The notes under the pieces were generated by a model. The model was not told the origin of the DNA. It saw nothing but the letters and a program-made list of their open reading frames with translations, and ran no database searches. A stretch of 26,955 nt of DNA from positions 1 to 26,955 of the forward strand of contig CAZTHR010000002.1 in assembly GCA_964613265.1 (NCBI GenBank). Reading direction: 5' to 3'. The position numbers and the translations under genes were made by a program. This DNA comes from an uncultured Lentisphaeraceae bacterium. Its GTDB lineage: Bacteria; Verrucomicrobiota; Kiritimatiellia; RFP12; UBA1067. Positions 7,893-26,955 of this stretch are shown one piece after another (the first letter of the stretch is position 1; each line of letters begins with the position of its first letter).

Positions 7893-9428
7893 ATGACGGA
7901 CAAGGCGCTGCTTGAACAGTATCTGCGCAGGATTCTCAACTCGAACGTCTACGATGTGGCGATTGAAAGTCCGTTGGAGGAGGCGGTCGCGTTGTCCGCC
8001 AAACGGGGGAACACGTTTCTGCTCAAGCGCGAAGATCTGCAGTGTGTGCATTCGTTCAAACTGCGCGGCGCCTACAACAAGATGTCGCGTCTGTCCGTCG
8101 ACGCGCTCCAGAAGGGCGTTTTGGCGGCGTCGGCGGGCAATCATGCGCAGGGTGTGGCGCTGAGCGCGCGCAAGCTTGGTTGCAAGGCCACCATCGTCAT
8201 GCCAGTGACGACGCCGGAAATCAAGATTGCGTCCGTCAAGAGCCTTGGCGCGTCCATCGTTCTCGCGGGCGATTCCTATTCCGACGCGGCGGCGGAGGCG
8301 GCGCGTCTCGTGAAGGAACAGGCGTTTACGTTCATTCCGCCGTACGATGATCCGGATGTCATTGCCGGGCAGGGGACGGTGGCGATGGAGATTCTGCGCC
8401 AGCGGCCGGGGAAACTGGACGCCGTCTTCGTCCCCGTCGGCGGCGGCGGATTTGCGGCCGGTGTGGCCGTCTACATCAAGGCCGTTCGTCCGTCTGTCAA
8501 AGTCTACGGTGTCGAACCGGTCGATTCGGATTGCATGGATCGCTCGATCAAGGCGGGCCGGCGCGTTGAACTTTCCGAAGTTGGGCTTTTTGCCGACGGC
8601 GTGGCTGTGAAGAAGCCGGGCAAGATCACGTACGACCTTTGTCGACGCTTTTTGGACGGCATCGTCCGTGTGACGACGGACGAAACGTGTGCGGCGATCA
8701 AGGACATTTTCGAGGCGACACGTGCCATTTGCGAACCGGCCGGCGCGCTGGCGCTCGCGGCCGCCAAACAGCACGCCGCGAAGAAGGGGGCGCAGGGCGA
8801 AACGTACGCCTGCATCATCTCCGGCGCGAACATGAACTTCGACCGCATACGTTTTGTCTGCGAACAGACGGAGATCGGTGAACGGCGCGAGGCCATCTTG
8901 GAGTGCCGTATCCCCGAAGAACGTGGCGCGTTCAAGGCGTTCATCCGCCATCTCGGCAAACGCAACGTGACGGAATTCAACTACCGCTATTTCGATCCCG
9001 ACAAGGCCTACGTGTTCGTAGGGTTGTCCGTGGCCGATCGCTCGGAGACGCGGCAGATCATTCAGCAGTTGGCGAATGCGCGGATTGGAACGATTGACTT
9101 GTCCGAGGACGCGCTCGCCAAGGAGCACATTCGCCACATGGTGGGCGGCCACACGCGCGGCATCCACGACGAAGTGGTCTACACATTCGAGTTCCCGGAG
9201 CGGCCGGGCGCGTTGGCGGACTTTTTGGAGGCCATCTCGAATTCCTGGAACATTACCCTCTTCCACTACCGCAACCACGGCGCCGACCATGGAAAGGTTC
9301 TTGTCGGACTTCAGGTGCCGAAGAAGGAACGGGCGGCATTCACGCGAACGCTGCGTGCGCTCGGCTACGTGTTCAAGGAGGTTTCGTCCAACCCGGCGTA
9401 TCGCCTTTTCCTTGGCAACCGCGACTAA
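7893..9428 (+). CDS. ilvA: threonine ammonia-lyase, biosynthetic (long form with two C-terminal regulatory ACT-like domains)
   Basis: LKREDLQCVHSFKLRGAYNKM (PLP lysine), ASAGNHAQGVA, GQGTVAMEIL, VPVGGGG, ISGANMNFDR, IPEERGAF and FEFPERPGAL...FHYRNHGAD regulatory repeats. SD AAGGAG upstream. Confidence 0.97.
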   Translation: MTDKALLEQYLRRILNSNVYDVAIESPLEEAVALSAKRGNTFLLKREDLQCVHSFKLRGAYNKMSRLSVDALQKGVLAASAGNHAQGVALSARKLGCKATIVMPVTTPEIKIASVKSLGASIVLAGDSYSDAAAEAARLVKEQAFTFIPPYDDPDVIAGQGTVAMEILRQRPGKLDAVFVPVGGGGFAAGVAVYIKAVRPSVKVYGVEPVDSDCMDRSIKAGRRVELSEVGLFADGVAVKKPGKITYDLCRRFLDGIVRVTTDETCAAIKDIFEATRAICEPAGALALAAAKQHAAKKGAQGETYACIISGANMNFDRIRFVCEQTEIGERREAILECRIPEERGAFKAFIRHLGKRNVTEFNYRYFDPDKAYVFVGLSVADRSETRQIIQQLANARIGTIDLSEDALAKEHIRHMVGGHTRGIHDEVVYTFEFPERPGALADFLEAISNSWNITLFHYRNHGADHGKVLVGLQVPKKERAAFTRTLRALGYVFKEVSSNPAYRLFLGNRD

Positions 9429-10114
9429 TCGCCGCGATATTTGCCGCGACAGTTGCTACAGAAGAAATCCGGGCCCGCCCAGGTCGTTTCCTCCTCGTGG
9501 CCGCATTTCTTGCAGACGCGCAGGGTGCGTTCGCGGACGAGGCGTACTTCCTCGGCGTGGTCGTCTAGATAGAGCGGCGGGAAATCGTTGACCCGCGTTT
9601 TGGAGAAAAGGGTCTGGTTGAACGGGACGGGTTTACCGTCCGGGTTGTGGAAGCCGACGACTTGGATGCGCTTGCCGAAGAGGCGGGCGCGGCGAATCGC
9701 AGGGAGATAGGCGATGTCGTCGCTCAGCAGGATTGCCACATCGTAGGCCGACGGCTGCGCGGCGTAGAACAGAAGGGAGGCGGCAAGGGACATCTTGATC
9801 CAGTTTTCGTCGTCGCCACCGTCGAGTTCGTGGATTTCCGTTTCATAGCCACAGTTCTTTTCGAGGAAGTCGTAGAACGAATACTGCTTGGCCGCACTGA
9901 AGCCGGCACGGGACGGCGGAAGCGTCCCGAAGTAGAGCGTCCGCACAAGAGACACATCCTCGTCCAGACGGTCTGCGACATCTTCGCAGAAAATCTTCGG
10001 GAGTTTCTGGTAGTCGATTTCAAACCCGTTCGTTTCGTTCAAACGTGCGAACAAGGCGGTTCGGCCACGATAAAGCCACCCGCCGTCGATAAACACCATC
10101 GCCTTGACTGACAT
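9425..10114 (-). CDS. NYN/LabA/DUF88 (PIN-like) domain protein with a C-terminal CxxC-x14-CxxC zinc ribbon; active site appears degenerate
   Basis: MVFIDGGWLY, LVRTLYFGT, YDVAILLSDDIAYLPAIRRARLFGKRIQVVGF, C-terminal CKKCGH...FFCSNCR. SD GAGGGA upstream. Confidence 0.8.
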   Translation of the reverse strand: MSVKAMVFIDGGWLYRGRTALFARLNETNGFEIDYQKLPKIFCEDVADRLDEDVSLVRTLYFGTLPPSRAGFSAAKQYSFYDFLEKNCGYETEIHELDGGDDENWIKMSLAASLLFYAAQPSAYDVAILLSDDIAYLPAIRRARLFGKRIQVVGFHNPDGKPVPFNQTLFSKTRVNDFPPLYLDDHAEEVRLVRERTLRVCKKCGHEEETTWAGPDFFCSNCRGKYRGD

Positions 10115-10153
10115 CTGTCATCCCTCGGTTTACGATACGCTATATGTGATGAT

Positions 10154-11212
10154 CTATTTGCTTTCCGGCAGATTGATACGCCAGGGAATTGAATCGTCGT
10201 CGCCTTTCCCAACGTCGAGAATTTCCGTTTTCGGCGCCGCGGTCGTGCGGGTCGATGCGGCGGCCGCCGCCTTGGGCGGTTGCGCCGGCGCAGACGGGGC
10301 CGGGACGTCTTTCCGCTTGGCAGTGCGCGTTTTCTTGAGCAGAGCCTCCAACTCAGGATCGTCCGCCTCGGCGTCCTTGAAGTAGTCGATCGCGCCGTTC
10401 GTCCCCGCAGCGGATTTCGAAGCCGGCGGCAACGGGGCGGCTTTGGCCGGCGGCGGGGGCGGAACGTCTGTTTGCAGCGGCGCAACGGCAGGTTTCGGCG
10501 GGGGCGGCGGCGGGAGAGCCGCTTGGGCGGCGGCCGCCGCGTTCAACGCATCCTGCCGTGCATAATATTCGGGATAGAGACGGCGACGCTGCTGTTCAAG
10601 GATGGCCTTGCTCCGATCCTCTTTTAGTTTCTGGCGTTCGGCCTTGATGCGTTCGCGTTCCGCTTGAAGCGCATCCTGCTGGCGGCGGAGTTCTTCTTTG
10701 AGGCGAATGGCCTCAAGGGATTCCGACAACGCGGTGGGCGACGGCGCGGCCACGACCGGAGCGGCGGGCTGGGCAGCCTGTTTGGAAAGCGCCGTGGCCA
10801 ACGACTCGATTTTCTCCAAAAGCGGTTTCAAGACTTTCGCGTCCGAAGATTCCGCCTGCGCCGGGGTAGCGGGCTGGGGTACGGGCGGCTGGACGACGAC
10901 CGGCGGCTGTTGGACTGGCGCGGGGCGTTCACGCAACGCGATGTCCAGCAGACGGTCGTTCAGCGACTGGTTGCGGTTGATGACGGCCACGACCACGAGC
11001 GTGAACGTTACGACGACAACCACGAGGAGGACGACGAAGAAAACCGAGAGACCAAGCATTCGTTTGCGGGCCTTGGCCTGTTCGGCGTTGAGATATTCCT
11101 GGAACGCTTTCAGGACGGGAAAGTCGTTGGCGCTCGCGCCGGATTGGTCGAAGAGGCTGACGGCCGACGGCTGCGGCGGAACCTGCTGCGGATCTTGTGT
11201 TGTCTCGGTCAT
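10154..11212 (-). CDS. hypothetical bitopic membrane protein with a coiled coil and Pro/Ala-rich linkers
   Basis: One hydrophobic segment (MLGLSVFFVVLLVVVVVTFTLVVVAVI) after a basic patch, heptad-like EAIRLKEELRRQQDALQAERERIKAERQKLKE, poly-Pro tracts. Has its own SD and promoter. Confidence 0.8.
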   Translation of the reverse strand: MTETTQDPQQVPPQPSAVSLFDQSGASANDFPVLKAFQEYLNAEQAKARKRMLGLSVFFVVLLVVVVVTFTLVVVAVINRNQSLNDRLLDIALRERPAPVQQPPVVVQPPVPQPATPAQAESSDAKVLKPLLEKIESLATALSKQAAQPAAPVVAAPSPTALSESLEAIRLKEELRRQQDALQAERERIKAERQKLKEDRSKAILEQQRRRLYPEYYARQDALNAAAAAQAALPPPPPPKPAVAPLQTDVPPPPPAKAAPLPPASKSAAGTNGAIDYFKDAEADDPELEALLKKTRTAKRKDVPAPSAPAQPPKAAAAASTRTTAAPKTEILDVGKGDDDSIPWRINLPESK

Positions 11213-11236
11213 ATCTTCCTTTCTAAAACATCGAAC

Positions 11237-11265
11237 ATTTTAGCATGGTAAGCCCTCTTTTGCAA
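11237..11265 (-). promoter_or_regulatory. sigma70-like promoter for the membrane hypothetical/NYN genes, TTGCAA-N17-TAAAAT with TGn
   Basis: Minus strand reads TTGCAA aagagggcttaccatgc TAAAAT. Confidence 0.7.
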
Positions 11266-11275
11266 CCCCCGCTTG

Positions 11276-11284
11276 TGGTATACT
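11276..11284 (+). promoter_or_regulatory. extended -10 promoter element TGgTATACT for pfkA
   Basis: TG-G-TATACT at 11276-11284, about 50 nt upstream of the pfkA ATG. No good -35 at 17-nt spacing. Confidence 0.55.
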
Positions 11285-11335
11285 ATGTGCCGTTTTTCAA
11301 CGCGGCCGCTGGTTCGGCCATCGGAGACACGACAC

Positions 11336-12703
11336 ATGAATTCGACACTTGAAAAAATCGCGGCCCACCCGGAGGTCTACTCCTGTCTGGTCGATTCCCT
11401 GGGCGAATGCAAGATCCTTTCGCCCATCCGCCACCACGATTTCATCCAGGAAGGCGAGCGCGTCCTTCTCACCGAACACGTCCCGCTGCGCGACTGGTTG
11501 CAGAAGAAGCTCGGCCATGAACCGACGTTCGAGCGCGCCGGTCCGCACGAAAAGATTTTCCACGACCCCAGCTGGACGCGCGTGGGCATCTTGACAGCGG
11601 GCGGCATCTGCCCCGGTCTCAACAACGTCATCAAGGGCCTCGTCGAAATCCTTTCCTTTGACTACGGCATCAAGACGATCTACGGTATCCGCTTCGGTTA
11701 CGCGGGGCTGAGTCCGCGTTTCGGTTATCCGCCGATCATGCTGAATCCGGACGTGGTGGACACGATTCACGAGGTCGGCGGCACGATTCTGGGTTCTTCG
11801 CGCGGGCAGCAGCCGACGGAGGAGATGGTGGACACGCTCGTGCGGATGAACATCAACGTCTTGTTCTGCATCGGCGGCGACGGTTCGCTGCGGTGCGCGC
11901 GCGACATTGCGGAGGAATGCCGGCGGCGCAAGTTGTCGATTTCCGTCATCGGCGTTCCCAAGACCATCGACAACGATCTCCAGTTCGTGGGGCCGAGTTT
12001 CGGTTTCGAGACGGCCGTGGCGGAGGCGACGGGCGTGATTCGGAGCGCCCACGTCGAAGCGCGTGGCACGTTCAACGGTATTGGTCTTGTCAAGCTGATG
12101 GGGCGCGATTCCGGCTTCATCGCCGCCAGCGCCACCGTGTCGAACCCCGTGGTGAACTTCTGTCTCATTCCCGAAGTCGATTTCGAGATGGACGGCCCGC
12201 ACGGCTTGCTGGCCGCTCTTGAACGTCGTTTCGCGAGCGGCAAGACGCATACCGTCGTCGTTGTGGCCGAGGGCGCGGGGCAGAAGCTCGTCGAAGGTGT
12301 CGAGGAACGGGACGCGAGTGGCAACATTCTCAAGAAGGACATCGGCGAGTTCATCAAGCGCCGCATCACGCGTCATTTCAAGGACAAAGGCATCGTCTCC
12401 AGCGTCAAGTATTTCGACCCCAGTTATATGATTCGCAGCGTGCCCGCGCGTGGGACGGACGCCATTCGCTGCTACATGCTCGCCCGTAACGCCGTCCACG
12501 CCGCGATGGCGGGACGCACGAACTGCGTCGTCGGCAGCGTGGGCGAATGGTATACGGTTGTGCCGATCAAGTTGGCGACGATCGAACGTCAGAAGGTGCT
12601 CGTACACAGCGACCTCTGGCGCAGCGTGATTGATGCGACAGGGCAGGAATTCTACTTTTCGACGGATGGCGAAACGCCGCGCGGCGACATGATGGCGCCG
12701 TGA
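11336..12703 (+). CDS. pfkA: 6-phosphofructokinase, probably ATP-dependent clade-X type (G104/K124 signature)
   Basis: ILTAGGICPGLNNVI, GGTILGSSRG, IGGDGSLR, GVPKTIDND, FGFETAV, VKLMGRDSGFIA, YFDPSYMIRSVPA. Start moved to ATG 11336 (SD GGAGA at 11323-11327). Confidence 0.92.
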   Translation: MNSTLEKIAAHPEVYSCLVDSLGECKILSPIRHHDFIQEGERVLLTEHVPLRDWLQKKLGHEPTFERAGPHEKIFHDPSWTRVGILTAGGICPGLNNVIKGLVEILSFDYGIKTIYGIRFGYAGLSPRFGYPPIMLNPDVVDTIHEVGGTILGSSRGQQPTEEMVDTLVRMNINVLFCIGGDGSLRCARDIAEECRRRKLSISVIGVPKTIDNDLQFVGPSFGFETAVAEATGVIRSAHVEARGTFNGIGLVKLMGRDSGFIAASATVSNPVVNFCLIPEVDFEMDGPHGLLAALERRFASGKTHTVVVVAEGAGQKLVEGVEERDASGNILKKDIGEFIKRRITRHFKDKGIVSSVKYFDPSYMIRSVPARGTDAIRCYMLARNAVHAAMAGRTNCVVGSVGEWYTVVPIKLATIERQKVLVHSDLWRSVIDATGQEFYFSTDGETPRGDMMAP

Positions 12704-12717
12704 CGCGGAGGATTCGT

Positions 12718-13575
12718 ATGACCGACGACTATGAACTGATCGATGCCGGCGACGGACGCAAGTACGAGCGTTTCGGCAACATCTCGCTCGTCCGGCCCTG
12801 TTCCCAGGCGCTTTGGCGGCCGCACGATCCTGCGTCCTGGCGTCAGGCGACGGCGAGTTTCGACCGCGAGGAAGGCAACCACTGGCATGGCCGTCAGGCT
12901 CTGCCCGCGTCGTGGACGATTCGCACGGCGGGGATCGCGTTCAAACTGCTGGGGACGGATTTTGGCCATCTCGGCATCTTCCCCGAACAACGCGCACAAT
13001 GGAACTGGATTCGCGAAACCGTCCGTGTCGCCCAGTCTGCCCGTACGGCGGACGCGCCGCGCGTTTCGGTGCTCAACCTGTTCGCTTACTCGGGTGGCAG
13101 CACGATCGCCGCCGCGCAGGGCGGCGCGGAGGTCTGCCATCTGGACGCCTCGAAGGGCATGGTGCAGTGGGCGCGGGAAAACGCCGCGTTGAACGGTCTG
13201 GCCGACCATCCCATCCGCTGGATTGTGGACGACGCGCACAAATTCATGCGTCGTGAAGCACGGCGCGGGCGGCGGTATGATGCGGTGATTTTCGATCCTC
13301 CCACATTCGGGCGCGGCGCGAACGGCGAGATGTACAAGATTGAACGCGACTTGCAGGAGACGCTTGCGCTCGTGCGCGACGTTCTCTCCGAGCGTCCGCT
13401 GTTCGTTCTCTTCTCCTCGCATACGCCCGGCCTTTCCTGCTGCGTGGCCGAGAACATTGTGTCTCAGGCGTTCGGCGTCTCCCGCGTGGAAAGCGGCGAA
13501 ATGCTACTTGAACCGGCGCCGGGGCGGGATACGTCGCCGTGTCCGTCCGGCATTTATTGCCGGGGGATTTTTTGA
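12718..13575 (+). CDS. class I SAM-dependent methyltransferase, RlmI/RlmK-like family
   Basis: DYELIDAGDGRKYERFG, HLGIFPEQ, VLNLFAYSGGST, CHLDASKGMV, RWIVDDA, YDAVIFDPPTFGRG. SD GGAGGA at 12707-12712 supports ATG 12718. Confidence 0.85.
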   Translation: MTDDYELIDAGDGRKYERFGNISLVRPCSQALWRPHDPASWRQATASFDREEGNHWHGRQALPASWTIRTAGIAFKLLGTDFGHLGIFPEQRAQWNWIRETVRVAQSARTADAPRVSVLNLFAYSGGSTIAAAQGGAEVCHLDASKGMVQWARENAALNGLADHPIRWIVDDAHKFMRREARRGRRYDAVIFDPPTFGRGANGEMYKIERDLQETLALVRDVLSERPLFVLFSSHTPGLSCCVAENIVSQAFGVSRVESGEMLLEPAPGRDTSPCPSGIYCRGIF

Positions 13576-13581
13576 TATAAT
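13573..13581 (+). promoter_or_regulatory. extended -10 promoter element TGaTATAAT overlapping the methyltransferase stop codon
   Basis: The TGA stop at 13573-13575 supplies TGn; TATAAT at 13576-13581. The exosortase ATG is only 9 nt further on, with no SD. Confidence 0.55.
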
Positions 13582-13590
13582 CCTTGATCT

Positions 13591-15201
13591 ATGAGACGGT
13601 TTCTTTCATCTCCGCGCGGGGGGCTGTTCCTCGCGACGGTCGTGCTTTTGTTGTTCGGGTTCGCCGGCATGTTCCAGCGGATCATGCAACTCTTTGCCGC
13701 GCCGGACGAGGATTTGTCGTATGGGTGGTTCGTGCCCGTCTTTTCGCTTTTTGTGCTGTGGACGCGGCGGCGTGAGTTGGTGGCGGCCGCGACGGCGGGT
13801 GCGCCCTCGTGGGGCGGTTTGGCGGCGTGTCTGCCGTGTCTCGTTCTCGCGGTTCTGGGAACGCGCGGCCTGCAGGTCCGCTTCGAGCAGCTTGGGTTCA
13901 TCGGCCTTTGCATCACCGTGCCGTGGGCGTTCTTCGGACGTGCCGTGGCGAAGATCTGCGTCTTCCCCGCGCTCTACCTGCTCTTCACGATTCCGCTCGC
14001 GACCTTCCTCGACGTGGTGACGATCCATTTGCGTCTCCTTGCCTGTTCAACGGCGCTTGCGGTGCTGAACGGTATCGGCGTGGAAGTCGTGCAGCAGGGG
14101 ACGGCGATCCTCTCTCAGGGGGCGCATCCGTTTTCAATCGACGTGGCGGAGCCGTGTTCGGGGCTGCGTTCGCTTTTTGCGCTCATGGCGTTGACGGCGG
14201 CCTACGCCTGGTTCACGCAATCGGGCTTTCTGCGTCGTGCGTTGCTCTTCGCCTGTTCGATTCCGCTGGCCGTCTTGGGGAACGTCATGCGCATTGTGAC
14301 AATCTGCCTCGTGGCGGCGGGGGCGGATCCCGATTTCGCAACGGGGTTCTACCACGACTATTCGGGCTACATCGTCTTTCTCGTCGCCATCCTCTGCATG
14401 GTGGGCTGTGGCGAGTTGATCGGGCGAATGCCCGTACGGGCGCACCGGACGGACGCGCCGGACGTATCTCCGGTTCGTCCATCGACAGGTCGTCGCGGAA
14501 TCGTCGTGCCTCTTGCGGCGTCTCTGGTGTTGGGTTCGCTGGCGCTCTTTCAGGCCACGACGCCCAAATCCACCCTCGCCGAAGCGCCGGCCATTTCGCT
14601 GCCGCGCAACGTGCCGGGGCATGTGGACGACGGTTTGCGTTTCTGCCACAACGAGACGTGTCTCCAGTGCGTGACCCTCGCCGAGTTGAACGGCGCGACG
14701 GCGTGTCCGACGTGCGGCGGTGACCTTTTCCACGTGTCGCTGGGCGAGAAGACGTTGCTGCCGGCGGATACAAAGCTCGAAAAGCGCACGTATCGGAATG
14801 CGCACGGCCAGCATTTCCTCGTCAGCGTCGTCATCGGCGGCGCGAGCAAGAGTTCCATCCACCGCCCCGAACTCTGTTTGCCGACTCAGGGTTTCCTCAT
14901 GGCCGACCCCGCGAACTTCGCGGTGGACGGCATTCCGTTCCACGCCATTCATCTGGCGAACAAGCAGATGCCGACGTCCATGCTGGCCTATACGTTCTTC
15001 AACCAGGCGGGGATGCGGACGGCTTCGCACACGCGGCGCATTTTGCAGGACGTTCTGGACCGATCGTTCCTGAACCGCATCGACCGCTGGGTGATGGTGT
15101 CTGTCCAGGCCTCCTCCGCAGCGGGGTTTTCGCTCGATCGGGCGGCGGATCGACAGGCGCTTGAGGCGTTCCTCTCGCAGATGATGAAAGGGTTGCGGTG
15201 A
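13591..15201 (+). CDS. exosortase (EpsH family) fused to an EpsI-like domain containing a Cys-rich insertion
   Basis: Multi-TM N-terminal half with DEDLSYGWFVP, catalytic triad motifs VAEPCSGLRSL (Cys), GNVMRI (Arg) and FYHDYSG (His). EpsI-like KRTYRN...VSVVIGG...SIHRPELCLPTQGF. Confidence 0.9.
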   Translation: MRRFLSSPRGGLFLATVVLLLFGFAGMFQRIMQLFAAPDEDLSYGWFVPVFSLFVLWTRRRELVAAATAGAPSWGGLAACLPCLVLAVLGTRGLQVRFEQLGFIGLCITVPWAFFGRAVAKICVFPALYLLFTIPLATFLDVVTIHLRLLACSTALAVLNGIGVEVVQQGTAILSQGAHPFSIDVAEPCSGLRSLFALMALTAAYAWFTQSGFLRRALLFACSIPLAVLGNVMRIVTICLVAAGADPDFATGFYHDYSGYIVFLVAILCMVGCGELIGRMPVRAHRTDAPDVSPVRPSTGRRGIVVPLAASLVLGSLALFQATTPKSTLAEAPAISLPRNVPGHVDDGLRFCHNETCLQCVTLAELNGATACPTCGGDLFHVSLGEKTLLPADTKLEKRTYRNAHGQHFLVSVVIGGASKSSIHRPELCLPTQGFLMADPANFAVDGIPFHAIHLANKQMPTSMLAYTFFNQAGMRTASHTRRILQDVLDRSFLNRIDRWVMVSVQASSAAGFSLDRAADRQALEAFLSQMMKGLR

Positions 15202-24104: not shown

Positions 24105-25037
24105 ATGAAAAAGACGATGATGGTGTGCGTGTTCGCGGCGGCGTTGGGCGCGGTTGCGGGTGAATGGGCGAAGCCGGCGCCGATTCCGCGTGAAAAAGGG
24201 CTGTTCCGCAGTCAGATCCACCGGGGCGGCGGCGCGAACACGCGCCCGGACAACTCGATGGAAACGTTTCTCTGGTGCTGGGGCATGGGGTTTGCGCCCG
24301 AAGCCGATGCACGGATGACGAAGGATGGCGTGGCCATTGCCATGCACGACGACAACTTCAAGCGTATCGGTCGGGGCATCACGCCCGAATTTGCCGCGAC
24401 GCCCGTCCACAAGCTGACGTGGGAGCAGGTTCGCGACGTCGACACCGGTTCATACCTTGGCAAGGAATACGCCACGACGCGCATTGCGACGATGGAGACC
24501 GTCTTCTCCGCCATGCGGGGGCGTCCGGAGCGTTTGCTCTATGTGGACGAGAAGGGAGCGCCGCCGGCGGAAATCGCGCGGTTGGCCAACCAGTTCGGCG
24601 TTATCGAGCAGACCTATTACTGTTCGTGGGATTGGCGCAAGGTGGTGGCGTGGCGTAAAGTCGCCCCCAAGGGCCGGTCGATGGTTTGGCTGGGCAACTT
24701 CCCGCGTGACAACAGTCCGGAAAACGTGGCGAAGACCGAAGCGTTCGTGCAGAAGCGTTTGGACGAAATGGCCGCGACGGGATTCGACGGCATTGATCAG
24801 GTGCAGATCCACGTCCGCACGGATCTCTCGAAAGCCGATCCGTTCTGTCCTTCGACGCCGTTCCTCAAACGGACGATCGAGCTGCTCCATCGGCATGGCG
24901 TTTCGGCGCAGACCGTGACGTGGACGGAGGGACAGAACGCGGACGTCCACAAGCGTCTGTGGGATATTGGCTTCGACCACTTCACGTCGGACTATCCGAT
25001 CTTCTTCAACGAATTCGCGAAAACGATTCGCAAGTGA
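24105..25037 (+). CDS. secreted glycerophosphodiester phosphodiesterase-family protein
   Basis: Signal peptide MKKTMMVCVFAAALGAVA. QIHRGG, PDNSMETF, EADARMTKDGVAIAMHD, C-terminal FDHFTSDYP. SD AGGAGA at 24090-24095. Confidence 0.85.
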   Translation: MKKTMMVCVFAAALGAVAGEWAKPAPIPREKGLFRSQIHRGGGANTRPDNSMETFLWCWGMGFAPEADARMTKDGVAIAMHDDNFKRIGRGITPEFAATPVHKLTWEQVRDVDTGSYLGKEYATTRIATMETVFSAMRGRPERLLYVDEKGAPPAEIARLANQFGVIEQTYYCSWDWRKVVAWRKVAPKGRSMVWLGNFPRDNSPENVAKTEAFVQKRLDEMAATGFDGIDQVQIHVRTDLSKADPFCPSTPFLKRTIELLHRHGVSAQTVTWTEGQNADVHKRLWDIGFDHFTSDYPIFFNEFAKTIRK

Positions 25038-25054
25038 CGATCCCTGTATCCTCC

Positions 25055-25126
25055 CCGCCCAATCGTTAGGGCGGTCACTTGTCAGAGTAGAGGCGACTAA
25101 CATAGCCGCCTCTACTCTGACAAGTG
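25055..25126. repeat. tandem hairpins: a 6-bp stem (25055-25074) and a perfect 20-bp inverted repeat (25076-25126)
   Basis: CCGCCC/GGGCGG, then CACTTGTCAGAGTAGAGGCG (25076-25095) / CGCCTCTACTCTGACAAGTG (25107-25126) with an 11-nt spacer. Confidence 0.9.
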
Positions 25127-25239: not shown

Positions 25240-26328
25240 ATGGCAACAAAGTTCTTCAACAACGAAAACGGCGATACACTTTTCGCTAAATTTACTGGTA
25301 TCGCCGAGGGGATGGGGGCTAATTTCCACACCTTCCAGGCAGTCTCCGGTTATTTTCGCTCGTCAGGGTACTTTAAGTTGAGGCGAGAACTGAAATCTAC
25401 GCAAAAGATTCAAGTTCTCGTTGGAATCAACATCGACAACGTCTTTCGCAAGTCACAGCGCGAGGGGATGATGTTCCTTGGTGATAAGGCGGATGCCAAA
25501 CGGCAATACACGCGGACGTTTGTCGATGACGTCCGTGCCGCAGGCTACACCAAGGAGATCGAAGATGGCATTGTCCAGCTCTGCGATGATGTTGTATCTG
25601 GAAAACTTGAACTGCGTGTACATTCGAGTCGGAATCTCCATGCGAAGTTCTATCTCTGCCTTCCGGAGAAGCATGGCCCCAACACGGACGGTTGGGTGAT
25701 CATGGGATCGTCCAACCTCACCGATTCCGGTCTTGGCACATCTTCGTCTCCTCGTTACGAACTGAACGTCGCGATGAAGGACTACGATGATGTCGCCTAT
25801 TGCAAGGCAGAATTCGACCGCCTTTGGTGCGAGGGGGTTCCCGTATCGGCGGATGATATTGCCATGGCGCGGAAACAGACCCACCTTGGTCAGCAACCAA
25901 CGCCGTTCGAGATATTCATGCGGGTCCTTATTGATATCTACGGCAGTCAGGTTGAGGATGAGTTTTCAATGGATTTGCCGTCTGGCGTGACAGATCTCAA
26001 GTACCAGCGCGATGCCGTTGTGCAGGGATATCAGATGCTGTGTCGCTACGACGGTTTCTTCTTGTCTGATGTCGTAGGACTTGGTAAAACAGTGGTTGCG
26101 ACGATGATTGCGCGTCGCTTTTCGGAAGCCAACGGAAAGACGACACGCATTCTTGTTGTTCATCCTCCGGCCGTGGAACAGAACTGGAAGGAGACGTTCA
26201 AAACATTTGGCCGAATAAGATGCGCCGTCCGCGTCCGTTCATCCTCGTCGGCACACCATGAAAGGATTTCATTCCGCTTCGCCTCGTCGACGATGAAGGC
26301 CTCGTTGCAACCCGTCTTGATTCCGTAG
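25240..26328 (+). pseudogene. truncated PLD-domain (HKD-like nuclease) + SNF2/SF2 helicase, RM-associated type
   Basis: PLD motif LHAKFYL...VIMGSSNLT, helicase motif I SDVVGLGKT and motif Ia ILVVHPPAVEQNW. Homology stops near 26210, before motif II. The last ~39 codons are the antisense of the RM fragment. Confidence 0.85.
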
Positions 26329-26462
26329 TTGATTTGGATGTTCCAATCCTTCAACGGTGTCCCGACGGCCTCGATCTTGCGCTTGATGCTCTGCTCGATG
26401 GGCGAAAGGATGACCCAGGCGTCGGATGAGGTGAATGCGCAGGGCGTGGCCTCCTGCTTCAC
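26160..26462 (-). pseudogene. fragment of a type IIG (Eco57I/TaqI-C-like) restriction-modification protein, C-terminal specificity region
   Basis: AWVILSPIEQSIKRKIEAVGTPLKDWNIQINYGIKTGCNEAFIVD...ERTRTAHLIRP matches, from recall, the segment preceding the TaqI-C-like domain. Homology spans about 26208-26471 and then runs into antisense helicase sequence. Confidence 0.75.
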
Positions 26463-26955
26463 GAAAACGCCCGATTGTCGAGTTCAGGAAGGAACGTTTT
26501 GATGAATCTGGCAAGCGTGTTGCGGTGAACTTTGCAGATCCTCGCAATTTTGTTGCGTGACTGTCCCAGATGCGACAGTTCGAGGATGAGATTCTTTCGC
26601 GTGTGAAGCTTATGCTTTTCGGGTGCTGTCTTGCGTCCTTTGGGGCGTCCGAGGACGACGCCCTCCGCGCGTTTTCGCGCCAGAGCCTCTTTCGTTCTCT
26701 GGCTGATGAGGTTGCGTTCAATCTCCGCAGACAGGCCGAATGCAAATGCCAGAACTTTGGACTGGATGTCTTCACCGAGACGATAGTTGTCCTTGATTGT
26801 CCAGACGCGACATTCCTTGTTCATGCAGATGTTCAGAATCTCCATGATCATGAAGAGATTGCGCCCGAGTCGTGAAAGTTCGGCGCAGACAATCAGATCG
26901 CCTTTTTGGACGCGCTTGAGCAGTTTGCCAAGTTCGCGTTTCGTAAAGGCCTTCG
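26459..26955 (-). CDS. serine recombinase (resolvase/invertase), Mpi-like family with C-terminal HTH; 5' end outside the window
   Basis: The frame continues to the window edge: KRELGKLLKRVQKGDLIVCAELSRLGRNLFMIMEIL...VLAFAFGLSAEIERNLISQRTKEALARKRAEGVVLGRPKG, then HTH-like SRNKIARICKVHRNTLARFI. Confidence 0.9.
   Translation of the reverse strand, partial: KAFTKRELGKLLKRVQKGDLIVCAELSRLGRNLFMIMEILNICMNKECRVWTIKDNYRLGEDIQSKVLAFAFGLSAEIERNLISQRTKEALARKRAEGVVLGRPKGRKTAPEKHKLHTRKNLILELSHLGQSRNKIARICKVHRNTLARFIKTFLPELDNRAFS

Follow-up and report, generated by a model that had tools for sequence, protein, structure and literature searches.

A deletion remnant of a restriction-modification shufflon of type IIG beside an Mpi-family serine invertase gene at the end of a Kiritimatiellia contig

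The closest described relatives of the locus reported here were published in 2023 by Milman, Yelin and Kishony (Nucleic Acids Research; PMC9881135), whose Table 3 includes a Bacteroides ovatus type II restriction-modification (RM) gene, a homologue of C. jejuni Cj0031, with a PLD+SNF gene upstream. Coexisting inversion variants in a locus of this kind were shown there with long reads, and Mpi-family recombinases were found to be enriched beside predicted targets of programmed inversion (Table 2 of PMC9881135). According to the same paper, a methyltransferase/RM gene of ~1120 amino acids lies directly downstream of PLD+SNF, inverted repeats overlap the gene, homologues occur in several phyla, and identification of the recombinase target motif is left to future work. 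Here we analyse a stretch of 26,955 nucleotides (the window), which is one entire contig (C2; CAZTHR010000002.1) of the metagenome-assembled genome (MAG) of an uncultured Lentisphaeraceae bacterium of the Kiritimatiellia (GCA_964613265.1; 2.2 Mb in 320 contigs, 93.7% complete) and is present in public sequencing runs from gut and faecal metagenomes. The end of this contig is a decayed, non-functional copy of the kind of switch published in 2023. In it, a truncated helicase gene is fused to the first module of a silent target-recognition cassette, which adjoins a gene for an Mpi-family serine invertase. Our reading, held with moderate confidence, is that this is the deletion remnant of a four-part RM shufflon, and that the deletion was most likely made by the invertase acting off target at a CC dinucleotide. 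Throughout, the target recognition domain (TRD) is divided into HEAD (88 amino acids, to LIRP) and TAIL (218 amino acids, from ILRGRDI); site A lies at the start of HEAD, site B at the HEAD/TAIL boundary and site C inside TAIL.

The likeness to the Cj0031-homologue class consists of an RM gene beside a PLD+SNF helicase gene (the B. ovatus locus is compared by the paper's description) and of a recombinase gene adjoining invertible DNA, a feature found in the window. In contrast to that class, the window's copy is no working switch; its target gene is gone, as is most of the cassette. Crossover points were not defined in PMC9881135, whereas sites A, B and C are placed here and B is mapped to CC. 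A short, inverted silent copy with an adjacent Mpi-family invertase gene goes beyond that paper; it was seen in relatives' contigs with an intact locus (L005-L007) and in the Bacteroides loci L037, L059 and L072. A literature search for a characterised Mpi/type IIG system yielded none beyond PMC9881135. An earlier reading of the window from its letters (the sequence-only reading) had implied that the locus type was new, which does not stand, as the type is already in that paper, with long-read confirmation.

Gin, Cin, Hin and Pin (Mu G segment, P1 C segment) are likewise small serine invertases encoded beside invertible DNA, with a 2-bp crossover core that gives polarity. The swapping of C-terminal coding ends by serine invertases is classical in Gin and Cin, where alternative C-terminal ends are exchanged onto a constant N-terminal part, as here. 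However, the sites of these enzymes are clear 26-bp dyads that need an enhancer and Fis, whereas neither dyad nor enhancer was identified here, and the several classes of site per locus (A, B and C) give combinatorial shuffling. Type I hsdS shufflons (SpnD39III of S. pneumoniae and type I RM of B. fragilis; PMC7672463, PMC7641763) resemble the present system in inversion between an expressed gene and silent partial copies, an adjacent recombinase and phase-variable specificity. Theirs is a separate S subunit with two TRDs and usually a tyrosine recombinase, whereas in the present system methyltransferase and TRD form a single protein and recombination is attributed to a serine invertase. In the BREX type 1 PglX inversions of Lacticaseibacillus (in PMC9881135), part of a large Eco57I/PglX-like methyltransferase is also exchanged by inversion, with non-functional intermediates; the defence system and recombinase are different, and the middle of the protein is exchanged there but the C-terminal end here.

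The deletion becomes apparent when the window is compared with an intact allele of the same species. Two contigs of this species, L003 and L004 (99.3% identity to the window over 11 kb, with upstream genes common to both), carry the complete helicase gene followed by a methyltransferase gene, of which 828 codons precede the contig end. L003 matches the window at 99.3% up to position 26212 and no further. The intact allele is also carried by run X8, from another study, in whose contigs intact helicase sequence continues past 26212. The helicase fragment of the window is 100% identical over 322 amino acids to the N-terminus of P0121 (1098 amino acids); this helicase is the partner gene of the type IIG methyltransferase, and in the window it ends at the deletion junction. 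At 26212/26213 it is joined to the HEAD stub on the opposite strand, and the third base of the last HEAD codon is contributed by the helicase side. The stub begins GVFVKQEATP (codon 1 at 26471-26469), tblastn places HEAD residues 2-88 there, and the remaining ~218 cassette codons (TAIL) are deleted, so that 88 of ~306 codons are left. The sequence-only reading missed this other cut end of the cassette and its fusion to the helicase gene. The best-defined crossover, the LIRP/ILRG boundary at which the deletion starts, is at this end of the stub and was likewise not seen in that reading. Coordinates are collected in Table 1.

Table 1. Features at the end of the window (whole-window positions).
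Feature	Coordinates	Strand	Basis or remark
PLD(HKD)-nuclease + SNF2-helicase gene, 5' part, codons 1-324 of 1098	25240..26212	+	Pfam PLDc_2, ResIII, SNF2-rel_dom
Deletion junction, GGCC common to both parents	26209..26212		parents read from L003 (helicase) and X1/X8 loose ends (cassette)
HEAD module, first 88 codons (GVFVKQ...HLIRP) of silent TaqI_C-type target-recognition cassette	26208..26471	-	
Site A island, start of inverted repeat common to expressed methyltransferase gene	26443..26472	-	consensus tG AGCGWTTTCGTGCAGCA
Mpi-family serine invertase gene, 3' 164 codons (26953-26459) and stop (26461-26459)	26459..26955	-	Pfam Resolvase 72 bits
Imperfect dyad of the sequence-only reading	26462..26480	.	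only inner arm (26462-26469) within site A

On the minus strand, the cassette parent reads ...CTTATTCGG-CC-GATTCTGCGC (from loose ends of runs X1 and X8, where it continues P-ILRGRDIKR), the helicase parent reads ...CATGAAAGG-CC-AAATGTTTT (L003), and the window junction reads ...CTTATTCGG-CC-AAATGTTTT. From these sequences we infer that the 2-bp crossover core is the CC at 26210-26209, which forms the first two bases of the proline codon of LIRP. A 2325-nucleotide Logan contig of run X6 crosses the junction, and in run X1 a junction contig (13x) and a minor intact-tail branch (4x) meet at 26209; the junction is therefore not an artefact of the MAG assembler. The deletion linked the cassette's site B with a sequence containing CC at helicase codon 324, with the loss of three quarters of the helicase gene, the entire methyltransferase gene and the cassette TAIL. 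Most likely the invertase itself made it, by exchange at the 2-bp CC core with an off-target site; in the canonical layout the two sequences are in direct orientation, and the product is therefore a deletion. What is left, a probably intact invertase gene with a single site A and a site B of hybrid make-up, is without a partner site in the genome and is no longer able to switch.

The window thus lacks most of a locus whose intact form is widespread. A survey of 80 species-representative loci established a canonical order, in which the helicase gene (~1100 amino acids), the methyltransferase-TRD gene (~1120 amino acids) and optional half-cassettes face a silent cassette (~320 amino acids) and the invertase gene (~204 amino acids). 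This layout is seen in L005-L007 and in most of the surveyed loci, with the invertase stop overlapping the cassette start; in the window, the stop codon at 26461-26459 falls within the first 11 nucleotides of HEAD homology. The hosts are mainly Bacteroidales, together with Kiritimatiellia, Treponema, Sphaerochaeta, Ottowia and records labelled as Firmicutes or Actinobacteria genera. Thousands of database proteins match HEAD at 75-85% identity. Of its best 120 matches, 28 are proteins of 919-1313 amino acids with N6_Mtase and Eco57I domains, most of them also with TaqI_C, and 92 are shorter (162-523 amino acids, mostly ~300 amino acids with TaqI_C only); the first 40 of these short matches all begin at, or a few codons from, M-S-V-F-V-K. 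PADLOC assigns the large protein to the type IIG restriction-methyltransferases (REase_MTase_IIG, 526 bits) and the helicase to "HKD+Snf2". The window's 88-codon HEAD gave no match in a Pfam and NCBIfam scan, and the stub has no catalytic domain (N6_Mtase/Eco57I, NPPY); N6_Mtase/Eco57I and TaqI_C domains are carried by the full-length relatives.

A long target gene and a short inverted silent copy with common repeats are present in the same-species allele and in the relatives, and the window holds one repeat copy and no target gene. Both L003 and L004 end, inside the methyltransferase gene (...CRKDL-GVFVKQEAT), with 30 nucleotides that match the reverse complement of 26443-26472 exactly. In run X8, HEAD (26209-26472) is a double-depth unitig with one end adjoining either the methyltransferase gene (..CRKDL) or the invertase gene and the other an ILRGRDIKR tail. 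Within the MAG, blastn, tblastn and a genome search found no second copy of the cassette, recombinase or sites, and no other piece of the helicase or methyltransferase gene was found there. These comparisons, like the 2023 paper, bear out the central proposal of the sequence-only reading, namely that the contig end preserves part of an RM shufflon whose Mpi-family invertase exchanges C-terminal target-recognition modules on a methyltransferase of type IIG-like form: the locus is found intact in the same species and in ~80 other species. The abrupt start of RM homology at G-V-F-V-K-Q, with an in-frame stop just upstream, was likewise confirmed (the stop lies 5 codons upstream of the initial G of HEAD), and the cassette start is fixed rather than random, being constant to the nucleotide across loci. 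A second, inverted copy of GCGTTTTCGTG..., expected by that reading within the full-length gene, was found in L003, in run X8 and in ~80 other species, and silent cassettes are present in intact loci too.

The crossover sites were located by comparing gene and cassette copies within 31 loci. Two islands have identical third codon positions within a locus, namely site A (-2 to ~+28 of HEAD) and site B (+246 to ~+300). At site A, identity between the two copies is 0.9-1.0 from -1 to ~+22, third positions included, and the DNA is conserved between loci. Site B, at the LIRP/ILRG boundary, reads ...TTATWCGACC GATTYT.... In the HEAD interior between these islands, the protein is conserved and third codon positions are diverged. 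Site C, at YW/EDFxKPKI within TAIL, bounds half-tail modules. HEADs are of two types, IQINYG ("Q") and INIYRG ("N"), and a locus usually has one of each. The gene holds N and the cassette Q in 15 loci, and the reverse applies in 7; both types pair with all main TAIL families.

The exchange point within site B was resolved in a related human-gut organism, represented by a set of metagenome contigs with a gene region 99% identical (L093, L101, L106, L108 and L112 among them). These five contigs differ by inversions and module swaps. For example, L106 and L108 have the stretch lying between the two HEADs in the opposite orientation to that in L093, and the gene slot of L101 holds the other HEAD type. 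The gene HEAD is unchanged to ..CGACC, and the sequences diverge from the next base. Recombination of site B with an inverted site C converts the parents TACGA-CC-GATTCT and AATCCT-CC-CAATAC into TACGA-CC-CAATAC and AATCCT-CC-GATTCT, and only CC is common to the products and both parents. As read from these contigs, strand exchange at site B is confined to CC, with which the LIRP proline codon begins. Such a 2-bp exchange is the behaviour of serine recombinases. The crossover at site A is bounded only to -2..+79 of HEAD (L101 compared with L093). Taken together, the invertase would recombine these short inverted sites within coding sequence and swap HEAD and TAIL modules of the silent cassette into the expressed methyltransferase gene, where they presumably change its target sequence; a change of specificity by module swapping is what we infer.

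An inversion in place of the first ~46-57 codons of TAIL, between sites B and C, was also observed in the expressed gene of eight human-gut metagenome contigs (L091, L096, L101, L102, L103, L106, L108 and L112). Such a flip breaks the reading frame, perhaps as an OFF state that can be reversed. The silent cassette of L093 has the same flip, with endpoints 18 nucleotides further in.

The breakpoint seen in the window recurs elsewhere. In a survey of 107 HEAD copies, the window's included, 14 stop directly after the LIRP codon (..CGACC in most) and continue into unrelated DNA, and 10 of these 14 adjoin an invertase gene. In L078, HEAD is fused to a helicase gene cut at codon 271, as in the window. 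Orphan units of an invertase gene and an 88-codon HEAD that end exactly at site B were found in L016, L020, L067 and L076, and also in L019 and L086; in four genomes with such units, no methyltransferase is present anywhere. Junctions of the form NPP/ILRGRDI, which split the methyltransferase at NPPY and attach its catalytic motif IV to the right half of site B, occur in at least five sequence backgrounds (L008 at 9199-14956, P0001, L090, L092, L095/L107 and L099), and the NPPY codons therefore look like a hot off-target partner of site B. The case in L008 is an inversion with its reciprocal product, an open reading frame (ORF) of 523 amino acids (HEAD, methyltransferase middle, HEAD and TAIL), whereas in L090 and L092 the stretch from NPPY to LIRP is absent. 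A general rule, that the invertase exchanges at the LIRP CC core and repeatedly hits off-target CC sites in the helicase gene, the NPPY codons (at least five lineages) and site C, is one that we advance only tentatively.

Lone 264-nucleotide HEAD modules were seen in L026 (~760-1020) and L027 (~10000-10260), with edges exactly at site A (beginning AGCG) and site B (ending CGACC) and unrelated DNA outside. In run X10, a 150-nucleotide contig (depth 107, 90-95% likeness) joins the HEAD start (26468, in site A) to helicase codon ~27 (25319) on the opposite strand, with 4 bases common to both and 41 nucleotides on one side. This joint may be another off-target junction in a relative, may belong to another organism or may be an artefact, and it was not used as evidence.

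We attribute the deletion in the window to the invertase mainly because breakpoints pile up at one dinucleotide. Several observations weigh against this reading. The helicase partner is unlike site B beyond GGCC (percentile 0.39 with a position weight matrix, PWM), and the partner flanks of all 14 junctions resemble site B marginally (P = 0.05, PWM, mean score); a T at the fourth base in 12 of the 14 partner flanks was noticed post hoc and is not relied on. Around the CC core of site B, inspection by eye in two registers revealed no convincing dyad symmetry, which is unusual for small serine invertases, and a weak dyad was seen around AC one base to the left. No inversion was seen in the window's own species. 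Runs X1-X7, which carry the junction, may be source samples of the MAG and so are not independent of it. In addition, the intact cassette of this species is known only as short loose ends, so that the length of the deletion, at least 6.4 kb (4.8 kb to the HEAD of the gene in L003, plus HEAD, TAIL, spacer and cassette TAIL), is an estimate; the equivalent interval in L005 is 6.75 kb. Finally, the 4-base microhomology at the junction would also fit ordinary illegitimate recombination. The same shufflon remnant could thus have arisen through microhomology-mediated recombination or replication slippage at GGCC, with no part for the invertase and with fragility or selection behind the coincidence with site B. 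This remains a serious rival because the resemblance of the partners to site B is weak, although we consider it unlikely on balance. Its difficulty is the position of the endpoint, which matches to the nucleotide the breakpoint of 13 other cut HEAD copies and falls on the 2-bp exchange point read from the contigs of a single related organism, whereas a random endpoint would be expected in a given 4-nucleotide window of the ~1-kb cassette in ~0.4% of cases.

Three further explanations were weighed. The locus could be intact in the cell; the window would then show one outcome of an inversion that joined site B and the helicase gene, and the rest would lie on unbinned contigs. The incompleteness and fragmentation of the MAG would permit this, and an inversion between site B and the methyltransferase NPPY codons exists in the relative L008. 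However, such an inversion would set TAIL beside helicase codon 324, whereas the window has HEAD and then the invertase gene, an order given only by deletion, and no methyltransferase or helicase remainder is in the MAG; we regard this explanation as very improbable. Slightly more improbable still is a chimera, in which the assembler misjoined the helicase fragment and the cassette. The region is repeat-rich, the contig ends 743 nucleotides further on, and assemblies of the locus often break at HEAD; against this, the junction is present in independent Logan unitigs of at least two runs, 4 common bases cannot mislead a graph with k=31 or larger, and the breakpoint is biologically meaningful. 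A small mobile module made up of the invertase gene and HEAD could have entered the helicase gene through site-specific recombination at site B, which would account for the orphan units that end exactly at site B, with no RM genes near them, in several genomes. Yet the same chromosomal site in this species has the full locus, including the invertase side (run X8), and an insertion would not delete the remaining helicase and methyltransferase genes, which leaves this idea with hardly any weight. Nor was a conserved outer boundary seen on the far side of the invertase gene, although no search aimed at one was made.

The sequence-only reading had recognised an Mpi-like serine recombinase at the contig end, in agreement with the NCBIfam model NF009949 ("master DNA invertase Mpi family"), on which the fragment scores 241.7 bits. 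This is under the cutoff of 272 because the contig end removes 44 N-terminal codons. P0241, a full-length protein of 208 amino acids from Logan assemblies of the same species (on a contig of 907 nucleotides), is 99% identical to the fragment and scores 328.9 bits, over the cutoff. It begins MTYGYIRVSSDKQ and contains the catalytic-serine motif YIRVSSDKQ, which falls within the 5' 44 codons of the gene, past the contig end at 26955. Sequence continues for ~3 kb beyond this position in the X1 and X8 Logan contigs, and the invertase gene is probably intact in the window's strain. The Mpi enzyme of B. fragilis acts, as far as known, in trans on promoter-flanking repeats with the core ARACGTWCGT. 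The likeness to it is that the present invertase reaches the curated family score at full length. In contrast to that enzyme, it is dedicated to its locus and works inside coding sequence, and its sites (AGCGWTTTCGTG; TWCGA-CC-GATT) are without the Mpi core; ARACGTWCGT is missing from the consensus sequences of both site A (AGCGWTTTCGTGCAGCA) and site B (TTATWCGACCGATT).

In L056, L066 and L070, the invertase gene is divergent from the adjacent HEAD rather than co-directional with it, and it can therefore itself sit on an inverted segment in some loci. The invertase gene is split in L016, L035 and L082.

The sequence-only reading had also proposed a recombination site at the start of HEAD, in the form of an imperfect dyad. 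The string CGAAAACG-CC-CGATTGTCG is indeed present at 26462-26480, and the guessed start of the repeat was right to within a base or two, with the inner arm lying in the conserved 30-nucleotide repeat. As a recombination site, however, the dyad does not hold up. Its arms are at edit distance 2, and dyads at least as good number 130 in the window and 68-90 in shuffled sequences, which is chance level. The outer arm (26472-26480) lies in the 3' end of the invertase gene, where the family shows no conservation, and the methyltransferase gene's copy has unrelated sequence at that position.

Upstream of the helicase gene, a hairpin at 25076-25126 (24-nucleotide stem, 96% complementary, 3-nucleotide loop) lies between the stop of a GDPD-family gene and the helicase start and is conserved in L003. 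At ~25037-25074, contig depth drops ~2.4- to 4-fold in runs X6 and X8 (47 to 20; 27-31 to 7), and loose ends in these runs diverge at 25037 and 25065. These features make the RM locus as a whole look like a strain-variable island with its left edge at ~25037-25074, adjoining the hairpin.

Three results go beyond what we found in PMC9881135: crossover points at nucleotide level for an RM shufflon that is widespread in gut bacteria, a map of its modules (HEAD and the first and second TAIL sub-modules) and evidence that dying loci break at the same sites. If off-target exchange at CC sites is a recurrent activity of the invertase, the specificity switch would also frequently turn the RM system OFF or make it self-destruct, in some cases irreversibly, and the orphan invertase-HEAD units across many genomes would be scars of such events. 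If the invertase causes these losses, its activity would explain in concrete terms how natural populations shed or silence phase-variable defence systems, and cut "specificity" ORFs beside orphan invertases would be scars rather than genes.

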